DNA from: an uncultured bacterium
GTDB lineage: Bacteria; Chloroflexota; UBA5177; JANWHV01
Length of the DNA: 64,000 nucleotides
Direction of reading: 5' to 3'
Assembly (NCBI GenBank): GCA_963729625.1
Contig: CAVSOU010000008.1
Coordinates: forward strand, 32,001-96,000
Part shown: positions 35,775 through 44,521 of the stretch, in pieces
Layout: every line of letters starts with the position of its first letter
Numbering within the stretch: position 1 is the stretch's first letter
Translations under genes and position numbers: made by a program
The notes under the pieces: generated by a model
Databases searched by the model: none
Seen by the model: the letters and a program-made list of their open reading frames with translations, nothing else
Told to the model about the DNA's origin: nothing

Positions 35775-36944
35775 GTGCGCGTGACCGATGTGGAAGCGAT
35801 GGTGCTCGACACGGGAAAGGACTACGCCAATCCAGCTGAGGCGGTGGAGGCGCATGGCGTCCGCTTCGTCTCGCTTCTCAAGATCACCACTGATGAAGGC
35901 ATCACCGGCTGGTCCGATATTGAGACCCAACCCCATGTTGGGAAGGCCGTCGTCGACGCGCCATCGGGCGGCGCGATTGGGTTCGAAGGACTGCGGGCGG
36001 CGCTGCTCGGCGAGAATCCGCTCGAGCATGAGCGGATCTGGCAGAAGATGTACCGGTATCTCGCCTACTATGGGCGCCAAGGAGCCGGCATGCAGATGCT
36101 CTCGGGGGCCGACATCGCACTCTGGGACATCGCCGGGAAAGCGCTCAACCAGCCGGTCTGCTGCTTGCTCGGCGCCCGATATCGCGAGAAGGTGAAAGCC
36201 TATGCCTCTACGCTGTTTCGCCCAACTGCCGACGCTATGCGGGCGGCGGTCGTCGGCTATCTGGCGCAAGGTTTCCGGGCTATCAAGTTCGGATGGGGCG
36301 TCTTCGGCCAGGATCTGGCCCAGGACATCGCCCTGGTCAAGGCGGCGCGCGAAGAAGCCGGGCCCGACGTGGACCTGATGGTCGACGCCGGCTGGTACGG
36401 GACGGCTGCCCACGATCCGTACCGGCCGCGTTCGCTCAAGGACTGGCTCCGGCTAATCACGGCGCTCGAAAATCTCAATGTCTTCTGGCTCGAGGACTGC
36501 CTGCATCCCGAGCATGTCTCTGGCTATGCCGCCCTGGCTGCCCGGACGACGAGCCTGCGCCTGGCGGCGGGCGAGCAGTGCGCCGGTCTGACGGAGTTCG
36601 AACGGCTCGCAGACGAGGGTCGGATCGACGTCCTGCAGCCGGACCTGTCGCGCTGTGGCGGCCTGACAGCGGGGCGGCAGATCGCGGACCTGGCGATGCG
36701 ACGCCTGATCGACTGCGTGCCGCACGCTTGGCTGACGGATCTCCTCACGGCAGCGTCGCTGCATCTGAATGCGTACCTCATGCACTCGCTCTACCTCGAG
36801 TACAACGTCGCCTCGGCGTCGCTACTCAGGCGCTTGTGCGCGCCGCCATTTGCGATGGTCGACGGGTACCTTGCGGTCCCGGCCGGTCCCGGTCTTGGCG
36901 TCCAGGTCGATGAAGATATCGTGGAGCGTTTTCGAGTGCTGTAG
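35775..36944 (+). CDS. Mandelate racemase/muconate lactonising enzyme family protein
   Basis: TDEGITGW, DIALWDIAGK, IKFGWG, MVDAG, WLED, AGEQ, QPD, PH, GPGLG. Confidence 0.9.
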   Translation: MRVTDVEAMVLDTGKDYANPAEAVEAHGVRFVSLLKITTDEGITGWSDIETQPHVGKAVVDAPSGGAIGFEGLRAALLGENPLEHERIWQKMYRYLAYYGRQGAGMQMLSGADIALWDIAGKALNQPVCCLLGARYREKVKAYASTLFRPTADAMRAAVVGYLAQGFRAIKFGWGVFGQDLAQDIALVKAAREEAGPDVDLMVDAGWYGTAAHDPYRPRSLKDWLRLITALENLNVFWLEDCLHPEHVSGYAALAARTTSLRLAAGEQCAGLTEFERLADEGRIDVLQPDLSRCGGLTAGRQIADLAMRRLIDCVPHAWLTDLLTAASLHLNAYLMHSLYLEYNVASASLLRRLCAPPFAMVDGYLAVPAGPGLGVQVDEDIVERFRVL

Positions 36945-37007
36945 CTCCAACATATGACGAGAGAGATTGTATATCGCGGACTTGCGTGAAAAAGAGAGGA
37001 TGCTCCA

Positions 37008-37682
37008 ATGGTCGAGACCGATCGAGAGATTCGTGAGTTTGTCGAACAGCACCTTTACGTCGCAGCGGTGTGCGACATCCTGGACTTGCTCGGTTACCGC
37101 TGCCAGGCCATGCACCAGCGGCTGCGCCCGCTGCTGCCGGACCGCAAGAAGTGTGGATTTGTCGGTCGCGCGCGCACCGTACGCTGGATGGAGACTGATT
37201 ATGTTGACCAGGACGACCCCTATGGGCTGGAGATCGCGGCTGTGGATTCTCTGCGCGCGGGCGACGTCGTCGTGCATTCCACCGACCACAGCGGTTCGAA
37301 CGCGCCCTGGGGCGAATTGATGTCGACCGCCGCGAAAGTGCGGGGCGCGGTTGGCTGCATCTGTGATAGCCAGGTTCGGGATTGTGTGCAGATCATTGAG
37401 ATGGGCTTCCCGGTGTACTGCGCCGGTATCCGGCCGCTCGACTCGAAGGGCCGAGGCAAAGTGATGGCCTACGACGTGCCCGTCCGCTGTGCTGAGGTCC
37501 TCGTTCAACCAGGCGAGCTCATCCTCGCGGATTACGACGGCATCGTGGTAGTGCCGACCATGGTCGAGCAGGAGGTACTGCGCCTGGCCAAAGACCGCGT
37601 GGGCAAAGAGTCGCTCACCAGGGCCGCACTGCTGCGAGGCGACACGTTGCGCGACGTGTATGACCGGTACGGCGTGCTTTGA
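37008..37682 (+). CDS. RraA-like / HMG aldolase family protein
   Basis: VCDILD, GRARTV, WGELMSTAA..RG..G...D..VRD, V.PGELILADYDGIVVVP. Confidence 0.88.
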   Translation: MVETDREIREFVEQHLYVAAVCDILDLLGYRCQAMHQRLRPLLPDRKKCGFVGRARTVRWMETDYVDQDDPYGLEIAAVDSLRAGDVVVHSTDHSGSNAPWGELMSTAAKVRGAVGCICDSQVRDCVQIIEMGFPVYCAGIRPLDSKGRGKVMAYDVPVRCAEVLVQPGELILADYDGIVVVPTMVEQEVLRLAKDRVGKESLTRAALLRGDTLRDVYDRYGVL

Positions 37683-37723: not shown

Positions 37724-38569
37724 TCAGCCGCGACGGGCGAGCACGATGCGCTCCACGGTGGACATGAGTAGAAAGATGACGATACCGGTCATCGTGGCGA
37801 CTATCACGACGGCCATCATCAGGGCGGTGTCGTACGATTGGTGGGCTCGATTCAGCAGGTTGCCCAGATTGTTGCCGCCACCAGCCACGTAGTCACCGAC
37901 GACCGCGCCGACCAAACTCAGCGTGCTGGTGATCCGCAGCGAAGCAAGAAGCGAGGGAATGGATGCCGGCCAGCGCAGCTTGAGAAAGATCTGCAGCCGA
38001 GAGGCATTGAGTACCCGGAAGAGATCGAGATGAATTGCGTCGACCATGCGCAGACCCTGGGTCATGTTGACGAGTGCTGGGAAGAAGGTAATCAGGAACG
38101 AGATGATGACCTGCGGCCAGATGCTATCGTTCGGCATAATGATCACCAGAATGGGCGACCACACGATGATTGGAATGGTCTGGATGAGCACCGCCAGAGG
38201 AAACATCGAGCGCTCCGCCAGTCGAGAGTGCACGAAAATCGTGGCGCCCGCAATAGCCAGCACGTTAGCCATCAAGAAACCCATGCCGGCTTCCTCGAGG
38301 GTGGTCAGTAAGCTCGACCCGAGGTCTGCCTTGTTGGTCCACAGGCTGTTGAGGGTGTCGTCGAGCCGCGGAAACAGGAATGGTGGAACCTTCTGCCACA
38401 CCACGAAGAATTGCCAGAAGCCCAGCACCGCGGAAACGGCCACTACCGGCAGCAGCACGTCCAGGACACGGTCTGCTACCAGCTTCCAGCGTATGTCGTG
38501 CCGGTGAGTGTCCCGCGCCACTCGCGTTCGCCCGCTCACACCTTCGAGCGTCTGTTCAATTTGACTCAT
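37724..38569 (-). CDS. NitT/TauT-type ABC transporter permease
   Basis: QTIPII.W.PI, FFP..VN..QGL, ASRLQIF.KLRWP, LVGAVVG. Confidence 0.9.
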   Translation of the reverse strand: MSQIEQTLEGVSGRTRVARDTHRHDIRWKLVADRVLDVLLPVVAVSAVLGFWQFFVVWQKVPPFLFPRLDDTLNSLWTNKADLGSSLLTTLEEAGMGFLMANVLAIAGATIFVHSRLAERSMFPLAVLIQTIPIIVWSPILVIIMPNDSIWPQVIISFLITFFPALVNMTQGLRMVDAIHLDLFRVLNASRLQIFLKLRWPASIPSLLASLRITSTLSLVGAVVGDYVAGGGNNLGNLLNRAHQSYDTALMMAVVIVATMTGIVIFLLMSTVERIVLARRG

Positions 38570-38588: not shown

Positions 38589-39413
38589 CTAAACAGGCGC
38601 CGCGATTGGCTCTCCAGACGCGAGCGTCTTGCTCCGCGCCCAGGCATCGTCGAGATCCACCGGCCTGCCATCCAGCGCGGAGAGCACGTGCGTTTCCAGC
38701 TTGAAGAACTGTCCGGACCGACGCACGGACGGATCGCGGGGACGTGGGATCGGTACCGAAATGGTGTGGTAGAGATAGCCAGGTCTGGGCGTGAACACTG
38801 CTACCTGGTCACTGAGATAGACCGCCTCCGAGATGCTGTGCGTGACGAAGAGCACGGTGATGCCGGTCGACTCCCAGACTTGAAGGAGGGCCGCGTTCAT
38901 CTCGTCGCGTGTAATCTGGTCGAGCGCGCCGAAAGGCTCATCCATGAGCAGCACTTCGGGCTCTTGCAGCAGCGCGCGCGCCAGGGCAACGCGCTGGCGC
39001 TGCCCGCCCGACAACTGCGCCGGAAGCCTTCCGATGCAATCTCCCAGGCCGACCCGTTCCAGCATGTCCAGGGCGCGCTTGCGGCCGTCTTTGTCGAGCT
39101 TCCCCCCAAGCTCGAGGGGAAGCTCGACGTTTCGCGAGGAGCGGCGCCACTTGAGCAGCGCCGGCTCCTGGAAGACCATGCCAATCTTGCGCGCGGTGCG
39201 TGCCGCGCGCGGGGAGACACCGGCAATAGTAATCCGGCCTGCCTCCGGCTCCAGCAGGTCTGCCACGAGCCTGAGCAGGGTGGACTTGCCACAGCCGGAC
39301 GGGCCGATCAGCGAGACGAACTGTCCCGCCTCGACCGACAGATTGATGTCCCGCAGGGCACAGACGCCGTTGGGATAGCTGAACCGCACGCCCTGGCAGG
39401 AAATGGCGCCCAT
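38589..39413 (-). CDS. NitT/TauT-type ABC transporter ATP-binding protein
   Basis: GPSGCGKST, LSGGQRQR, MDEPFGALD, FVTHS..EA..LSD. Confidence 0.93.
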   Translation of the reverse strand: MGAISCQGVRFSYPNGVCALRDINLSVEAGQFVSLIGPSGCGKSTLLRLVADLLEPEAGRITIAGVSPRAARTARKIGMVFQEPALLKWRRSSRNVELPLELGGKLDKDGRKRALDMLERVGLGDCIGRLPAQLSGGQRQRVALARALLQEPEVLLMDEPFGALDQITRDEMNAALLQVWESTGITVLFVTHSISEAVYLSDQVAVFTPRPGYLYHTISVPIPRPRDPSVRRSGQFFKLETHVLSALDGRPVDLDDAWARSKTLASGEPIAAPV

Positions 39414-39414
39414 G

Positions 39415-40416
39415 TCAGTGCGCGGCTCCCAGGAACTGCGTGGTGAAGACGTCGCCGGCGGCAATAGGCGCCTTGATCTGCTTGTATTTGAGCAACAGGC
39501 CGATACCTGCCTGCCAGCGGGCGGCGGTCATCGTGCCGGTTGGCGCGTTCGGTTGAGAAGCGAGCTTGGCGAGCGCTTTCATCTCCTCCATCTGCTGCGA
39601 GACCGAGTCCTGGGGGTCAAGCTTGGGCACGACGAACTTGGCAATCTCGTCCGGGTGGGTCAAGGCATACTTCCAGCCCTTATCCATGATCGAGACGACC
39701 TTCTGCACCAGGGCGGGATTCGACGTGATCGTGCTGTCCGTGGTGAACAGCACGTCGCTGTAGAAGTTGTAGCCGTAGGCGCTGGCAGGGATGATGTTCA
39801 CATTGACGTGGTACTTCTGGGCAAGCTCGATCGGCTCATTCGTCAGATAGGCCAGGTAGGCGTCGACCTTGCCGGCCAGGAGCACCGTAGGATCGTACTG
39901 AACGACTACCGGCGATACGTCGCTCTCTTGCAGGCCGACCGCGTTGAGCATCGCGTCGAGCACGTATTTCTCGTGGCTTTGGTACCCGATACGTTTGCCC
40001 TTGAAGTCCTTCGGCGACTTGATGCCGCTCTTGGGCATGGTGATGAAGGCAAACGGTGACGACTCGCCCGATGCCCAGATGGCCTTCACCGGGATCTTGG
40101 CCGCGCGGCCGAGGATGAGGGAGGCACCGTCCTGGAAGCCGAACTGGTATTTGCCGGCGCCGACCAACACCACCGGATCCTGATAGCCGTCGTCATAGCT
40201 GCGCACCGAAACCTGCAGACCGGCCTGGGACCACCAGCCCTTTTCCTGGGCTGCCCAGATACCGCCGAATTCGACGTTCTTGATCCAGTTCAAAGCAATG
40301 GACACGTTGGTCGAGCTTGCGGCGTGGACCGCGGGCCCGGGAAGTGGATTGATGATGGCTGCCCCAACAAGGACTGCAAGAACTGCAGACCGAGACACAC
40401 AGCGCCGAATATTCAC
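39415..40416 (-). CDS. NMT1/THI5-like ABC substrate-binding protein, probably purine/nucleoside-related
   Basis: Signal peptide; LNW...EFGG.WAA..KG.W..AGL, PKDFKGKRIG, YLTNEP; downstream of purine-related riboswitches. Confidence 0.88.
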   Translation of the reverse strand: MNIRRCVSRSAVLAVLVGAAIINPLPGPAVHAASSTNVSIALNWIKNVEFGGIWAAQEKGWWSQAGLQVSVRSYDDGYQDPVVLVGAGKYQFGFQDGASLILGRAAKIPVKAIWASGESSPFAFITMPKSGIKSPKDFKGKRIGYQSHEKYVLDAMLNAVGLQESDVSPVVVQYDPTVLLAGKVDAYLAYLTNEPIELAQKYHVNVNIIPASAYGYNFYSDVLFTTDSTITSNPALVQKVVSIMDKGWKYALTHPDEIAKFVVPKLDPQDSVSQQMEEMKALAKLASQPNAPTGTMTAARWQAGIGLLLKYKQIKAPIAAGDVFTTQFLGAAH

Positions 40417-40479
40417 GGGAGTCGTCCATCCTTTTCTCTACCGCACGAGCAATTCCGAGCCCGTCCGGATCGTCGCGGA

Positions 40480-40540
40480 CAAAACGATAAGCCCGACTGG
40501 CAGTCCCACAGAAGTTGAGTGGAACCTGCCATCCGGGCTT
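40480..40540 (-). terminator. Riboswitch expression-platform terminator hairpin
   Basis: AAGCCCGGAUGGCAGGUUCCAC-loop-GUGGGACUGCCAGUCGGGCUU then AUCGUUUU; the 5' arm is the 3' end of the ykkC aptamer. Confidence 0.7.
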
Positions 40541-40667
40541 TTGTCCCCGTGGTGTAGCAAGGAGAACATCTCCTTGCCAGCATCGCTCGGTCCAGGCCAC
40601 CCTGCGGCCGCTGCCAAAGCGCAGCGAACGCGACCGCACGGCACGGAACCCTAGATGCACTTCCCTC
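40517..40667 (-). ncRNA. ykkC-family riboswitch aptamer, subtype 2, PRPP signature
   Basis: Minus strand GGAAGUGCAUCUAGGGUUCCG...CUGGACCGAGCGAUGC...ACACCACGGGGACAAAAGCCCGGAUGGCAGGUUCC; G at the PRPP/ppGpp discriminator; P0 pairing GGAA/UUCC. Confidence 0.85.
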
Positions 40668-40728
40668 GTAGCCAGGCGGTTTACGGCCGCCGATAGAAAC
40701 GCCGAGCCAATCCTCGAGCTTATACGAG
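40665..40728 (-). ncRNA. Purine (guanine-type) riboswitch aptamer
   Basis: Minus strand CUCGUAUAA-GCUCGAG-GAUUGG-CUCGGC-GUUUCUA-UCGGCGG-CCGUAAA-CCGCCUG-GC-UACGAG; P1 CUCGUA/UACGAG; C at position 74 equivalent. Confidence 0.88.
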
Positions 40729-40744
40729 TGTTTCGCTTACAGCA

Positions 40745-40771
40745 ACTATACCATCTTCCTCGGCCGGTCAA
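40745..40771 (-). promoter_or_regulatory. Promoter for the riboswitch leader
   Basis: Extended -10 TGG-TATAGT (40750-40745); TTGACC at 40771-40766 with a short 15-nt spacer. Confidence 0.5.
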
Positions 40772-41397
40772 CCAGGCCCAGGCGCTTCCTGCTGTTCTCC
40801 CGACGCCGCGACTTGCCGCGGATCTCGGTCGTGATGCAGGCCCTCAATGTAGAGATCGACCAGCCGCCGAAAGCTCTCCTCGATATCAAGCGGGAGGCCG
40901 AAGCCGCCGCCTGCTTCCAGGGAAACGAACCCGTGAACGAGGCTGCGGAAGTGGCGTACGGCGTGCAGAGCCTCCACGCCATGCAGGTCGTATCCGGCAA
41001 GGATCGCGAGAGGCACGAGAACGACATCGCGCTCCGCAGTCTCCAGTTCGGGATCCGGCGCGCGATTGGCGGGTGCGACGCGCAGCATGATCTCGTAGAC
41101 TCCCGGGTGCTGGTGCACGAACGCGCGGTAGGCGCCGGCCAGTGCCCTCACGGCGTCATCGCGCGAGCGCCCGACCGTGGCCCTGGTGAGGGCGCGTTCC
41201 AGCTCACGGTCGCCCAGGAGGGCGAGATCGCGATGCAGGCCGGGCAAGCCGGCGATGTGATTATAGAGCGATGGAGTGCGGATACACAATGTCGTGGCCA
41301 GCGCGGCGAGAGTCAACGCAGCCGGCCCGGAGCTGTCGACGAGCGTGTATGCCGCGCGTACTACGGTATCGTGGTCGATTCCCGGCCTAGCTGCCGT
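40768..41397 (-). CDS. TetR/AcrR-family regulator (WHG-type C-terminus); apparent ACG start
   Basis: LTLAALA..L.IRTPSLYNHI.G HTH; AYRAF...HPG.Y; SLVHGFVSLEAGGGF; AAGGAGG RBS before ACG 41397. Confidence 0.85.
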   Translation of the reverse strand, partial: TAARPGIDHDTVVRAAYTLVDSSGPAALTLAALATTLCIRTPSLYNHIAGLPGLHRDLALLGDRELERALTRATVGRSRDDAVRALAGAYRAFVHQHPGVYEIMLRVAPANRAPDPELETAERDVVLVPLAILAGYDLHGVEALHAVRHFRSLVHGFVSLEAGGGFGLPLDIEESFRRLVDLYIEGLHHDRDPRQVAASGEQQEAPGPG

Positions 41398-42115
41398 GTT
41401 GAACCTCCTTGCCCGGCCGACGCTGCGCGACGGCAATGGCGCGGTCCATGGCGGGAAGCGGCGCCTCCAGCACGCTGCCATGTCCTGTCGCCAACCGCTT
41501 TGGCTCGAGATTCCGGAGGGAGATGGCGCTGTCCAGAGAGGCAGGGCGAGACCAGGTCGCCATCGCAGGGAAGGGGAACAGCGGCTGCACGGTACCGGCG
41601 ACCGCGATGCCAGCGCGAGTCTGGTAGGCGTCGCCGGCGATCAGCGTTCCATCGCGCGTATCGAACAGGGCCATGTGCCCAGGCGTGTGGCCCGGGGCAG
41701 CCACCACGAGCAACGACCCGACGCGATCGCCGGGCCGCAGGAACCCGGTCGGGCGCGTGCTGCAGGTCTTCCAACTGCCGCGGAGCTTGGCCGGCGATTC
41801 GCCTGGCTCCATCCGCATATCTCCGGCAAGCATGCGTGCGTCGCGCTCGGAGATAAGCACTTCCGCGTCCGGCAACCCTTCGTGCAGAACGTCGAGAGAG
41901 CCGACGTGATCCATGTGCGCGTGCGTGAGCACGATGCGACTGATCTGCAGGCCTTGCGCGCGAGCGGCGGCGCGAATGGCAGGGGCACTGCCGGGCAGAG
42001 CGGCGTCGACGAGCGTAAGGCCGTCGTCTTCGCGCACCAGGTAGCAGTTCACCGGAAAGACGCGCGGCAGGCGCGTGAGCTGCGTGAGATACGTTCCATG
42101 AGTTGTGACGCGCAT
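41387..42115 (-). CDS. Metallo-beta-lactamase-fold hydrolase
   Basis: LTHAHMDHVGS, PGHTPGH, AGDA, GHG motifs. Confidence 0.92.
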   Translation of the reverse strand: MRVTTHGTYLTQLTRLPRVFPVNCYLVREDDGLTLVDAALPGSAPAIRAAARAQGLQISRIVLTHAHMDHVGSLDVLHEGLPDAEVLISERDARMLAGDMRMEPGESPAKLRGSWKTCSTRPTGFLRPGDRVGSLLVVAAPGHTPGHMALFDTRDGTLIAGDAYQTRAGIAVAGTVQPLFPFPAMATWSRPASLDSAISLRNLEPKRLATGHGSVLEAPLPAMDRAIAVAQRRPGKEVQHGS

Positions 42116-42388: not shown

Positions 42389-44521
42389 TCATGTCGCGGG
42401 ACGCACCGGAATGCGCAGGACCCACGCCTCGACCGCGCGAGAGTCGAAGGACGGCGTGAGGGTGGTACTGGTGGCTTCAGGGTAGTGGCTCAGCAGATCG
42501 CGCCAGAGGGTGCGGTGCTCCGGCAGAATTATCAGTGCCAGCTTCCGCTGGTTGTTATGCGTCGGCATAGGCCGGGCCAGGTCAAGGAGTGTGACATCTC
42601 CGCCGGCGTCATAGCGCAGCGTCGGATAGTCCAGCCCGGAGATACCGGCCACCAGCGCCGGATCCACAAGCACGGTGTAGCCCTGGCGCCGAAGCGTGGT
42701 CACCTGGCGGCCGGCGAGCACGCGTGCTCCGCCATTGGCCTCCCAGGCAGCCAGATTCGCCGCTTGTTGGTTAAAGTACCGGTCGACGTTCAGCCAGCCT
42801 GCCAGGGCCAGCACGGCACACAGCGCGGCCGCCGAGATAGCACGTGGACGGAGCACGCGGCGCCATCCCGGCACCTTGCCGCGCGCAGCCGTGGCAGCTT
42901 CTTGCGACATCCCAGCCTGCCAGAGCAGCAGGAGCGGAAGCGCGGCGATCAGGACGGTCGGGATCAGCGCGGCGAGCGAGCGCAGGCTCTGCGGCGCTTC
43001 GCCGTCAAGCGTCAGGATACCGCCGGAGAGTGCAGCGGCAAGCCAGAGCAGAAGCAACTGATAGACCCAGCGCGACGAGTACCGCACGGCCACGCCCACG
43101 CCCAGGACAAAACACGTGCCGGTGACCGGATCGAGCATAGGCGCGCCCGGCAGGTTCTGGCGCCCGTTCTGGTCGCCGGAGGCCGTGAACATGAGCAGGT
43201 GTCGCCCCGTGTTGCGCAGCAGCGCAGGGATGAAGTGCGCCCAGTCGGCATACTCGTGGCTGAGCGCCACGCTGCTCATGCGGGCGGAATAGAATGCCGG
43301 ATCGAGGTGCGCGGCAACCAACAGCGGCAGCGCCGCCAGCACGAAGCCGGCAGGCAGAAGCGCGGCCGCCGGCCAGGCTGCCCGGCGATAGGTTCGGTCG
43401 CTGTAGAGCCTGAAGGCGGCAAAGACGATGGCCGCGGCAATGGTTGCGACCGATCCTACATACGTCATCATCGCCAGCCCGAGAAAGATTCCGCTCAGCA
43501 GGAACCAGCTAGCGGCCGGAGAGACGAGGGCCGAGCAGAGCGCCCACGCGCCGAGGCCGAGGAGCGCCGGGGCGGCGATGTTCGACATGCCCAGGCGAGA
43601 GATGGTAATCGACCAGGCAGATACGGCCAGCAGCACGGCGGCGATCAATCCATAGGCGTATTCCGCGTATGCCTTCCCAACGGCGAACGCGGCCGCCACG
43701 CCCAGGACGCCGAAGAGTGCCGAGACCAGGCGGAGCGAAACGATGCCCGTGCCCAGGAAATGCACGACAGCGGCCTGCGTGTACGCATAGAGGCTTGGCG
43801 TGTGTCCGTAGTTGCCGGGAGCATAGGGCTGAAACGGCAAATGCGACAGCGCCTGGGCATTGGCGAGGCTGTCGACCTCATCGATCCAGACGCCGAATGG
43901 GAGTATGTCGAGACGCCAAAGGCGCAGCACAAGGGCCGCCACAAGCGTCGCCGCCAGCAGGGAAATCGGCATGGCCCGGCGCCAAGGCTCGGCCGCAATC
44001 CGATCGCTCGTCTGCGCGCCAGGCACCGGAAGGCCCAGCAGGCGATCCGCGCGCCAGGCCATGATGAGCGAGGCGAGCAGTGCGGCAATCCACAGCGCCG
44101 CGGCAAACGACGATCCGGCATCGGGAAAGAGATGCGCGGCCGTGAAGGGCTCGGCGTTCCATATCAGCGCGGCCGGCAGTCCAAGTCCCAGCATCGGCAG
44201 CAACGGGACAAGTGCCCGCGACGTGCGCGGCGCAGGCCGCGCGGCCCGCGCTTCCGGGATCCGGCGGGAGGCTCTACCGCACTCCGGCTCGGTGCCCGGC
44301 AGAGGATCGGGAAGCACGAGAGCGGCAAGGACTATGGCCAGAAGCGTGGCAGCGATCACCCAGGCCGGCACATGGTCGCGTGGTGACTGATGCTGGCAGG
44401 CAATCGCAAGCGCAAGGGCGGTCAGGCCCGCGGTGACCTTGGGGCCCCGGCCGTTCAGCCTACGAGGCCGGTGAGCACTCACATATAGGTGAGGCCAGGC
44501 AGCGGGACCACGGCGGTTCAA
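42389..44521 (-). CDS. GT-C fold membrane glycosyltransferase (ArnT/PMT, GT39/83-like); start uncertain
   Basis: LRLWRLD..P.G.W.DE, SLRL.SALFG, A.S.W.ITISR, multiple TM helices, extracellular C-terminal domain. Confidence 0.85.
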   Translation of the reverse strand: MNRRGPAAWPHLYVSAHRPRRLNGRGPKVTAGLTALALAIACQHQSPRDHVPAWVIAATLLAIVLAALVLPDPLPGTEPECGRASRRIPEARAARPAPRTSRALVPLLPMLGLGLPAALIWNAEPFTAAHLFPDAGSSFAAALWIAALLASLIMAWRADRLLGLPVPGAQTSDRIAAEPWRRAMPISLLAATLVAALVLRLWRLDILPFGVWIDEVDSLANAQALSHLPFQPYAPGNYGHTPSLYAYTQAAVVHFLGTGIVSLRLVSALFGVLGVAAAFAVGKAYAEYAYGLIAAVLLAVSAWSITISRLGMSNIAAPALLGLGAWALCSALVSPAASWFLLSGIFLGLAMMTYVGSVATIAAAIVFAAFRLYSDRTYRRAAWPAAALLPAGFVLAALPLLVAAHLDPAFYSARMSSVALSHEYADWAHFIPALLRNTGRHLLMFTASGDQNGRQNLPGAPMLDPVTGTCFVLGVGVAVRYSSRWVYQLLLLWLAAALSGGILTLDGEAPQSLRSLAALIPTVLIAALPLLLLWQAGMSQEAATAARGKVPGWRRVLRPRAISAAALCAVLALAGWLNVDRYFNQQAANLAAWEANGGARVLAGRQVTTLRRQGYTVLVDPALVAGISGLDYPTLRYDAGGDVTLLDLARPMPTHNNQRKLALIILPEHRTLWRDLLSHYPEATSTTLTPSFDSRAVEAWVLRIPVRPAT

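Follow-up and report, generated by a model that had tools for sequence, protein, structure and literature searches.

The closest described systems are tandem riboswitches of Firmicutes, in which a guanine aptamer lies upstream of a ykkC-class aptamer for 5-phosphoribosyl-1-pyrophosphate (PRPP). Typically 5-7 nucleotides (nt) separate the P1 stems and no terminator intervenes (Sherlock et al., 2018, eLife, PMC5912903). The same architecture was demonstrated in vitro to work as an IMPLY gate in Bacillus megaterium, and all 257 PRPP riboswitches were placed in Firmicutes in 2018 (PMC5912903). Three marks distinguish the ykkC classes. Guanidine-I riboswitches have a conserved adenosine, A46, where a pyrimidine (C49) is found in subtypes 2a and 2b. 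G96 is kept in subtype 2b and is unconserved in 2a (Knappenberger et al., 2018, PMC6031431). The third mark is a pair of conserved tails, 5′ and 3′, which form helix P0 in subtypes 2a and 2b; guanidine-I has neither the tails nor P0 (PMC5912903; PMC6031431). Here we describe a related RNA in a window of 64,000 nt (contig CAVSOU010000008.1, positions 32,001 to 96,000) from an uncultured bacterium. It combines a guanine aptamer with a ykkC aptamer of subtype 2b, the PRPP type. Sequence analysis indicates that this tandem probably controls transcription of a three-gene ATP-binding cassette (ABC) importer via one shared terminator.

We aligned 42 distinct tandems from Chloroflexota and Firmicutes, collected from a pattern scan of genome_contigs, from 41 related genomes and from 401 genomes of the phylum. 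The scan pattern was too loose and gave at least 120 matches, mostly by chance; those with a match length of 40-45 were examined, as were those that passed a loose filter, and further true tandems may be present among the rest. At least 24 true tandems (21 Firmicutes-titled, 3 Ktedonobacterales-titled) were accepted by reading, and they form a non-random sample. In the alignment, 88.8% of the pair cells hold standard pairs, compared to at most 44.8% with slid partners. Both sides have changed in 26 of 39 pairs. None of 500 shuffles attained the values seen in the alignment. Covariation is found in P1 and P3 of the guanine aptamer and in P1, P2 and P3 of the ykkC aptamer, where insertions are confined to the distal tips of P1b and P2. 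Fifty columns are invariant across the two phyla, including pocket and tertiary-contact nucleotides.

The first aptamer matches the Rfam Purine model RF00167 over its full length (40747-40649, model positions 1-102) with 57 bits against a gathering score of 37. This is the sole gathering-level Rfam match within the window, and the sole purine riboswitch match in the whole assembly (5.4 Mb, 21 contigs, 87% complete). The conserved nucleotides of J1-2, J2-3 and L3 agree with the consensus (UAUAA, GUUUCUA, CCGUAAA, CUAC), and the J3-1 specificity position that discriminates guanine from adenine is a C. L2 is 1 nt short, as it is in three tandems of the same class (L125, L132, L133). By these sequence marks the aptamer is of the canonical guanine type, and the preliminary description of this DNA, which had named a purine aptamer of the C type and proposed a covariance-model check, is borne out here. 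Upstream of it are promoter-like elements. A sigma-70 scanner that requires a spacer of 16-18 nt reported zero promoters at the locus; it rejects this pair of elements because their spacer is 15 nt. In the leader sequences of relatives, extended -10 elements resembling TGn-TAnAnT occur at the equivalent position. The promoter proposed earlier is thus retained as a pair of promoter-like elements, of which the -10 is kept in relatives, but the scanner gave it no support.

The second aptamer follows directly. In a permissive scan of 40300-40900, the ykkC model RF00442 matched positions 40665-40528 on the minus strand over the full model (1-107), with E values of 8.6e-9 in the 601-nt search and 1.8e-8 genome-wide. 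It is the sole ykkC match in the whole assembly. Its score, 53.8 bits, falls short of the gathering score of 63, as would be expected when a subtype-2 variant is scored against a guanidine-I model. The covariance-model check of the ykkC aptamer hence gave a full-length, significant match that stays under the gathering score. The P1-P1a-P1b, P2 and P3 scaffold is present, with the conserved CUAGGGUUCCG, GGxCCGAG and GGGAxAAAAGCCC, and P1b carries a 38-nt insertion relative to RF00442.

Within this scaffold, the class marks point to subtype 2b. The position of guanidine-I A46 is a C here, and C or U throughout the 42 aligned tandems. ACACC and the G96 equivalent are unchanged in 42 of 42, as is the long-range CG pair between this G and a cytidine of ACACC. 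Aligned by eye to a Caldanaerobacter locus (L034), the RNA has identical counterparts of the PRPP contacts A5, G6, G48, C49, C77, C78, G96, A103, G104 and G105 named by Knappenberger et al. (PMC6031431). With the P0 tails, all sequence marks examined support assignment to ykkC subtype 2b, and PRPP would be the expected ligand. A subtype-2 ykkC aptamer immediately after the guanine aptamer is what had been proposed from the sequence. All named elements lie on the minus strand and reach slightly beyond the interval first described.

At E ≤ 0.001 RF00442 found nothing in five titled genomes, though three carry the tandem. Insertions in P1b and P2 defeat the model, so that counts based on it, which include 17 ykkC places in the 41 related genomes, are lower bounds. 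Six loci of family f26 and Ktedonobacterales metagenome-assembled genomes (MAGs) (L143-L145, L147, L007, L044) have insertions of roughly 60-110 nt in P1b and P2.

The two aptamers share nucleotides. From the last contiguous guanine P1 pair (GAG, 40665) to ykkC P1 (40658) the gap is 6 nt, and folds of the leader place no terminator or hairpin between the aptamers. The P0 5′ strand, GAGGGAA, pairs with UUCC-A-CUC, forming GGAA/UUCC and then GAG/CUC past a bulged A. Five nt, 40667-40663, are common to the guanine P1 3′ strand and the P0 5′ strand, which makes guanine P1 and full P0 mutually exclusive. This overlap is widespread. We paired the sequence that follows guanine J3-1 with the sequence that follows the conserved AGG, requiring a duplex of 5 bp or more in which two or three of the three guanine P1-strand nucleotides take part. 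Such a P0 duplex was found in 41 of the 42 tandems, in Chloroflexota and Firmicutes. Shuffled 3′ segments formed it in 23.5 tandems on average and in 31 at most. Duplex energies average -7.51 kcal/mol, compared to -3.91 ± 0.25 kcal/mol in shuffles. The pair adjoining GAG varies by lineage (U-A, C-G, G-C or U-G), and in L119 both strands of the P0 extension have changed.

The 3′ part of the ykkC aptamer is also part of the terminator, whose 5′ arm reaches from the 3′ strand of P3 through the ligand-contacting tail into the 3′ strand of P0. The terminator is seen in minimum free energy (MFE) and centroid folds and in constrained folds. The leader has an MFE of -124.4 kcal/mol (z-score -3.6 relative to shuffles). 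Relatives have hairpins with U tails at the equivalent position. A simple terminator scanner did not list this terminator at 40538-40479 because its stem is interrupted and its loop is long. The nascent transcript up to 40517 has the long P0 in its MFE fold, and the full-length transcript has the terminator. Both structural proposals made at the outset, a terminator whose 5′ arm is the aptamer 3′ end and a GAG of guanine P1 that can instead extend ykkC P0, agree with these results.

We infer the gate logic and the ligands at this locus from the architecture. Guanine bound to the first aptamer would lock P1 and cut P0 to four pairs. The short P0 would weaken the PRPP aptamer, so that its 3′ part is released into the terminator (OFF). 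PRPP bound to the second aptamer would hold the 3′ part, allowing polymerase readthrough (ON). An empty guanine aptamer would permit the long P0, which would also hold the 3′ part and allow readthrough (ON). Expression would be OFF solely at high guanine and low PRPP, as in an IMPLY gate. The energies weigh against one half of this scheme. Guanine P1 plus terminator is at -122.4 kcal/mol and the aptamer state at -108.2 kcal/mol, ligand energies excluded. The ligand-free terminator state is ahead by about 14 kcal/mol, so kinetics would have to account for the ON state that an IMPLY gate has by default. The mechanism is not new. The phylum, the cargo and the functional prediction that follows from it are the notable parts.

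Table 1. Features of the tandem riboswitch locus; positions are those of the window.
Feature	Position	Strand	Remarks
TetR-family regulator	40768..41481	-	directly upstream; PF13305 4.9e-27; stop codon inside -35 element
Promoter-like element	40745..40771	-	-35 TTGACC 40771-40766; extended -10 TGgTATAGT 40753-40745; spacer 15 nt; predicted from sequence
Guanine aptamer	40663..40730	-	P1 40730-40723 with 40670-40663; specificity C 40671; RF00167
ykkC subtype-2b (PRPP-type) aptamer	40517..40667	-	RF00442, marker positions, covariation, P0 duplex
ykkC P0 5′ strand	40667-40661	-	
ykkC P1	40658-40654 with 40584-40580	-	
ykkC marker C	40585	-	
ykkC P2	40579-40555	-	
ykkC ACACC	40555-40551	-	
ykkC P3	40547-40535	-	
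ykkC G96 equivalent	40533	-	
ykkC 3′ tail	40532-40525	-	
ykkC P0 3′ strand	40524-40517	-	
Shared intrinsic terminator	40479..40538	-	5′ arm 40538-40519; 3′ arm 40509-40491; U-rich tail 40490-40479; predicted by folding
Substrate-binding protein, NMT1/THI5-like, 333 aa	39415..40416	-	PF09084 1.6e-50; N-terminal signal-like hydrophobic stretch
ABC ATPase	38589..39464	-	PF00005 3.8e-34; best NCBIfam matches taurine/sulfonate-type ATPases, below cut-offs
ABC permease	37724..38569	-	PF00528 3.4e-24

The ligand of the second aptamer deserves scrutiny. The architecture could be the same with the Chloroflexota aptamer sensing another phosphorylated ligand, such as guanosine tetraphosphate (ppGpp), a nucleoside diphosphate or another ribose phosphate, in which case the gate would not be guanine IMPLY PRPP. 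Two differences from the Firmicutes copies argue for this and against PRPP. The 3′ tail here and in most Chloroflexota copies is 1 nt shorter (AUGG-Y-AGG, compared to NCGGG-U-AGG in Firmicutes). The three positions between ACACC and P3 (79-81 in Thermoanaerobacter mathranii numbering) read ACG here and are GAA-like in Firmicutes. Both adjoin the binding pocket and could alter specificity. Small changes can matter, as G96A alone is reported to convert a PRPP aptamer into one for ppGpp, shifting specificity 40,000-fold (PMC6031431). However, the G96 equivalent is a G in every aligned tandem, and the named PRPP contacts are kept except at the variable position 101. Short-tail copies of the same class precede purL, a classical PRPP context, and tail length is not fixed within the class, since L128 has the long form. 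We consider a different ligand unlikely.

Another reading has the guanine aptamer regulating alone, as a plain guanine OFF switch, with the ykkC-like domain a ligand-blind platform for antiterminator and terminator. The sub-gathering RF00442 score, the 38-nt insertion in P1b and the thermodynamic preference for the terminator would fit such a platform. Invariant pocket and tertiary-contact nucleotides over two phyla would be unexpected in a mere spacer, and the covarying helices, with insertions kept to the distal tips, also argue against it, making this reading very unlikely. The second aptamer could also be a guanidine-I riboswitch and the ABC system an importer of guanidine. Guanidine-I is indeed the best Rfam model, and guanidine-I riboswitches are known to control ABC importers of the NitT/TauT-like type (PMC12186494). 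However, the marker adenosine is replaced by a pyrimidine in all tandems, ACACC stands in place of the Rfam guanidine-I consensus ACACGG, and the tails and P0 that guanidine-I lacks (PMC5912903; PMC6031431) are present. Guanidine riboswitches of any class are reported to be absent from tandems (PMC9481103), and no guanidine-degradation gene is adjacent at the locus. Guanidine sensing is extremely unlikely. A guanine and PRPP tandem is the reading that we retain.

The genome belongs to the phylum Chloroflexota, as indicated by three observations. Over its C-terminal 581 residues, RpoB shares 79% identity with a Ktedonobacterales-titled MAG, 72% with Brevibacillus, and 63-69% with Dehalococcoidia, Sporomusa, Rubrobacteraceae, Nostoc and others. 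A locus of family f26, in the same phylum, matches a Ktedonobacterales-titled locus at every position over 283 nt. A relative of the substrate-binding protein (SBP) at 61% identity carries the NCBI name Chloroflexota bacterium. The class of this genome is small, comprising 21 species genomes in three families, and f26 belongs to another class.

The 5′ motif of the aptamer was found at 24 places in 19 of the 401 phylum genomes, in four families only: f1, which includes this genome (2 of 5 genomes), f3 (8 of 12), f7 (1 of 5) and f26 (8 of 11). All other families had none (0 of 368). The class and f3 counts include one unpublished, motif-negative genome (G018), and a control with the reversed pattern gave one match. 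These counts are lower bounds, as the pattern is exact and missed L129, for example. By reading, 18 of the 24 places are tandems and 6 are singlets. As judged from these sequences, the guanine-PRPP type of tandem extends beyond Firmicutes and is native to two Chloroflexota classes. The proposal that the gate occurs here in a different lineage therefore holds, against the Firmicutes-only placement in the cited portions of PMC5912903. A full-text literature search found no paper linking PRPP riboswitches with Chloroflexi or Chloroflexota, and a 2022 review of tandem riboswitches makes no mention of Chloroflex*, Firmicutes or permease. The Chloroflexota occurrence bears on the age and mobility of this RNA gate. 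These copies also offer natural variation beside the PRPP pocket (the short tail and the junction residues) and large P1b insertions, which may be of use in structure-function work.

Singlet RNAs are found in the same class. Six in f3 (L123, L126, L127, L129, L134 and L136, in G013, G012, G011, G008, G015 and G016) are subtype-2b-like ykkC RNAs with a full-length Firmicutes-type 3′ tail and a conserved hairpin, GACAGG...CCUGUC, where the guanine aptamer would be. A histidine-phosphatase-superfamily gene follows them, identified by PF00300 (1e-53 to 7e-55) in L126 and L127 and assigned from a shared N-terminal peptide alone in the other four. Such cargo is unmentioned in the examined portions of the PRPP riboswitch papers. 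The one guanidine-I-type ykkC RNA of the class (L122, G016:C26; 67.6 bits) has the marker A and precedes an isochorismatase-family gene (PF00857, 1.2e-42).

The three genes downstream of the tandem encode an SBP of the NMT1/THI5-like type, an ABC ATPase and an ABC permease. The closest solved relatives of the SBP are 4nmy (1.9e-21) and the formyl-aminopyrimidine (FAMP)-binding protein 3ix1 (9e-17), whose ligand is a pyrimidine heterocycle. A protein atlas placed the SBP in generic NMT1 clusters with Pseudomonadota as the commonest taxon, and gave no functional lead. The same tandem leader precedes SBPs that are 89% identical in a congener (G001) and 92% identical on a metagenome contig (L175). 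At L175:1085-1270 the leader is preserved as far as the terminator loop, and unrelated sequence replaces the terminator 3′ arm and the first 36 SBP codons. This break may reflect a rearrangement, the end of an insertion or a chimeric assembly. Three SBP homologues at 70-72% (L166, L167, L177) are divergent from an adjoining gene of the thymidine/pyrimidine-nucleoside-phosphorylase family (PF00591, PF02885, PF07831), which on gene context is a second link of the SBP clade to nucleobase metabolism.

In other genomes the gate precedes purine genes. Behind the tandem, purL is found at six f3 loci by Pfam (L124, L128, L130, L132, L133, L135), and at L125 solely on the strength of an N-terminal peptide that it has in common with L132. 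Transp_cyt_pur (NCS1) follows at L137, L140, L141 and L147, and Xan_ur_permease (NCS2) at L139, L142-L145, L007 and L044, and also behind the singlet L146. Nucleobase permeases are thus the cargo at 11 of 11 loci in f26, f7 and the Ktedonobacterales-titled MAGs. Among the Firmicutes matches listed, Xan_ur_permease is the cargo in 10 of 12, with purD and a phosphoribosyltransferase in one each. These numbers modify the earlier suggestion of an unusual gene class, which fits the ABC/NMT1 type but not uptake as such, since permeases are the commonest tandem cargo in the sample. Beside de novo synthesis, purine uptake is suggested by this sample as a main cargo of the gate.

The five genomes of the genus (G000-G004, 83-95% complete) gave no PF00860 (Xan_ur_permease) or PF02133 (Transp_cyt_pur) match, and PF00860 was found in 12 of 14 control genomes. 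This genome (G000) encodes a Gpt-like phosphoribosyltransferase of 156 aa (G000:C10:671464-671934). An HGPRTase equivalog was looked for and not found in G000-G004, the score being 31 bits against 150. Xanthine-I riboswitches precede NMT1/THI5-like and tauA-type ABC genes (PMC7373994). The gate cargo, the missing permeases, the salvage gene, the SBP relatives and the xanthine-I precedent together make a purine-base importer the best reading of the transporter, predicted with about an even chance of being right. The NMT1/ThiY-like ABC system would import a purine base (guanine, hypoxanthine or xanthine-like), which the Gpt-like enzyme would salvage with PRPP. It would stand in for the NCS1/NCS2 permeases that carry the switch in other lineages. 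More tentatively, at slightly under an even chance, a branch of ThiY/NMT1 became the purine-base importer of the genus, replaced NCS1/NCS2 and recently captured the gate, which in relatives stands before purL and permeases. If so, this would be a new substrate class for the ThiY/NMT1 transporter family, the gate would move between unrelated uptake systems, and a second phylum would have native PRPP riboswitches, distinguished by a tail variant. The riboswitch serves as a functional label, predicting a purine-base cargo for an uncharacterised NMT1/ThiY-like ABC system.

Several observations count against this assignment. The assemblies are incomplete and MAG-like, so a permease that was not found is no proof of absence. 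The phosphoribosyltransferase scores 66.8 bits against a family cut-off of 138. Importers of the NitT/TauT type have the guanidine-I association noted above. The pairing of the tandem with an NMT1/ThiY-like ABC importer occurs only in G000, G001 and L175. No Rfam riboswitch was found in the DNA examined around the genes of SBP homologues at 68-71% identity (three congeners), 56-74% (nine metagenome loci) and 38-41% (f3), a search that covered L165-L167, L176-L184 (56-74%) and L168-L174 (38-41%, with L170 in G018) and gave 0 of 10 and 0 of 9 loci. In L176, with an SBP 74% identical, the TetR neighbor is kept and the riboswitch is absent. The link between transporter and riboswitch therefore looks recent and narrow, which leaves no conserved regulon behind the substrate call.

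Two metatranscriptome runs contain short contigs similar to this locus: one of 151 nt on 40662-40785 (X12, 90-95% likeness) and one of 175 nt on 40304-40475 (X13, 95-99%). Runs X9 and X10 had no match. RNA-library contigs do not show transcription, ends or strand, and run shares of at most 0.37 carry no habitat claim. Other neighboring genes have no evident link to the riboswitch. Genes for an enolase-superfamily protein (MR_MLE) and an RraA-like aldolase (35775-37682, plus strand) converge on the transporter operon. A PMT_2 glycosyltransferase-like gene (710 aa, 42389-44521, minus strand) lies upstream of the TetR gene.

The RNA resembles known guanine-PRPP tandems such as the B. megaterium codA leader (PMC5912903), with which it shares the aptamer order, the short spacer, the tails, the P1/P0 overlap and a single terminator overlapping the PRPP aptamer. 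The 21 Firmicutes tandems among the matches listed align with it column for column. Compared to the Firmicutes tandem (PMC5912903), it is found in Chloroflexota, its 3′ tail is 1 nt shorter, and P1b has the 38-nt insertion. The cargo also differs, an NMT1/ThiY-like ABC importer here and purine-synthesis genes or codA there. The singlet PRPP riboswitch of T. mathranii, known from a crystal structure (PMC6031431), has the same P0/P1/P2/P3 four-way junction and contact residues. Here position 101 and its neighborhood are shortened, and a guanine aptamer is coupled to the PRPP-type aptamer.

The ppGpp riboswitch of subtype 2a shares the fold, the tails and an occasional ABC-transporter cargo, found in 12 of 105 (Sherlock et al., 2018, PNAS, PMC6003355). 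Unlike in 2a (PMC6031431), the G96 equivalent is invariant here, and the tandem partners of 2a are T boxes, not guanine aptamers. Guanidine-I (RF00442) RNAs on ABC guanidine importers have the same core fold, ON logic via a P3-overlapping terminator and ABC importer cargo, whereas here the marker A is a C, P0 and the tails are present, and a guanine aptamer stands in tandem. Xanthine-I, the NMT1 motif, is likewise a purine-sensing RNA before NMT1/THI5-like and tauA-type ABC genes (Yu and Breaker, 2020, PMC7373994). Its fold is unrelated, it has a single input, and it occurs in other lineages with a link to purine degradation. In Bacillus subtilis, purine uptake genes are under double control by PurR, which responds to PRPP, and by guanine riboswitches. 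Both arrangements combine PRPP and guanine on purine uptake or salvage genes. One of the two sensors in B. subtilis is a protein repressor, whereas at this locus both would be RNA and act through one terminator.

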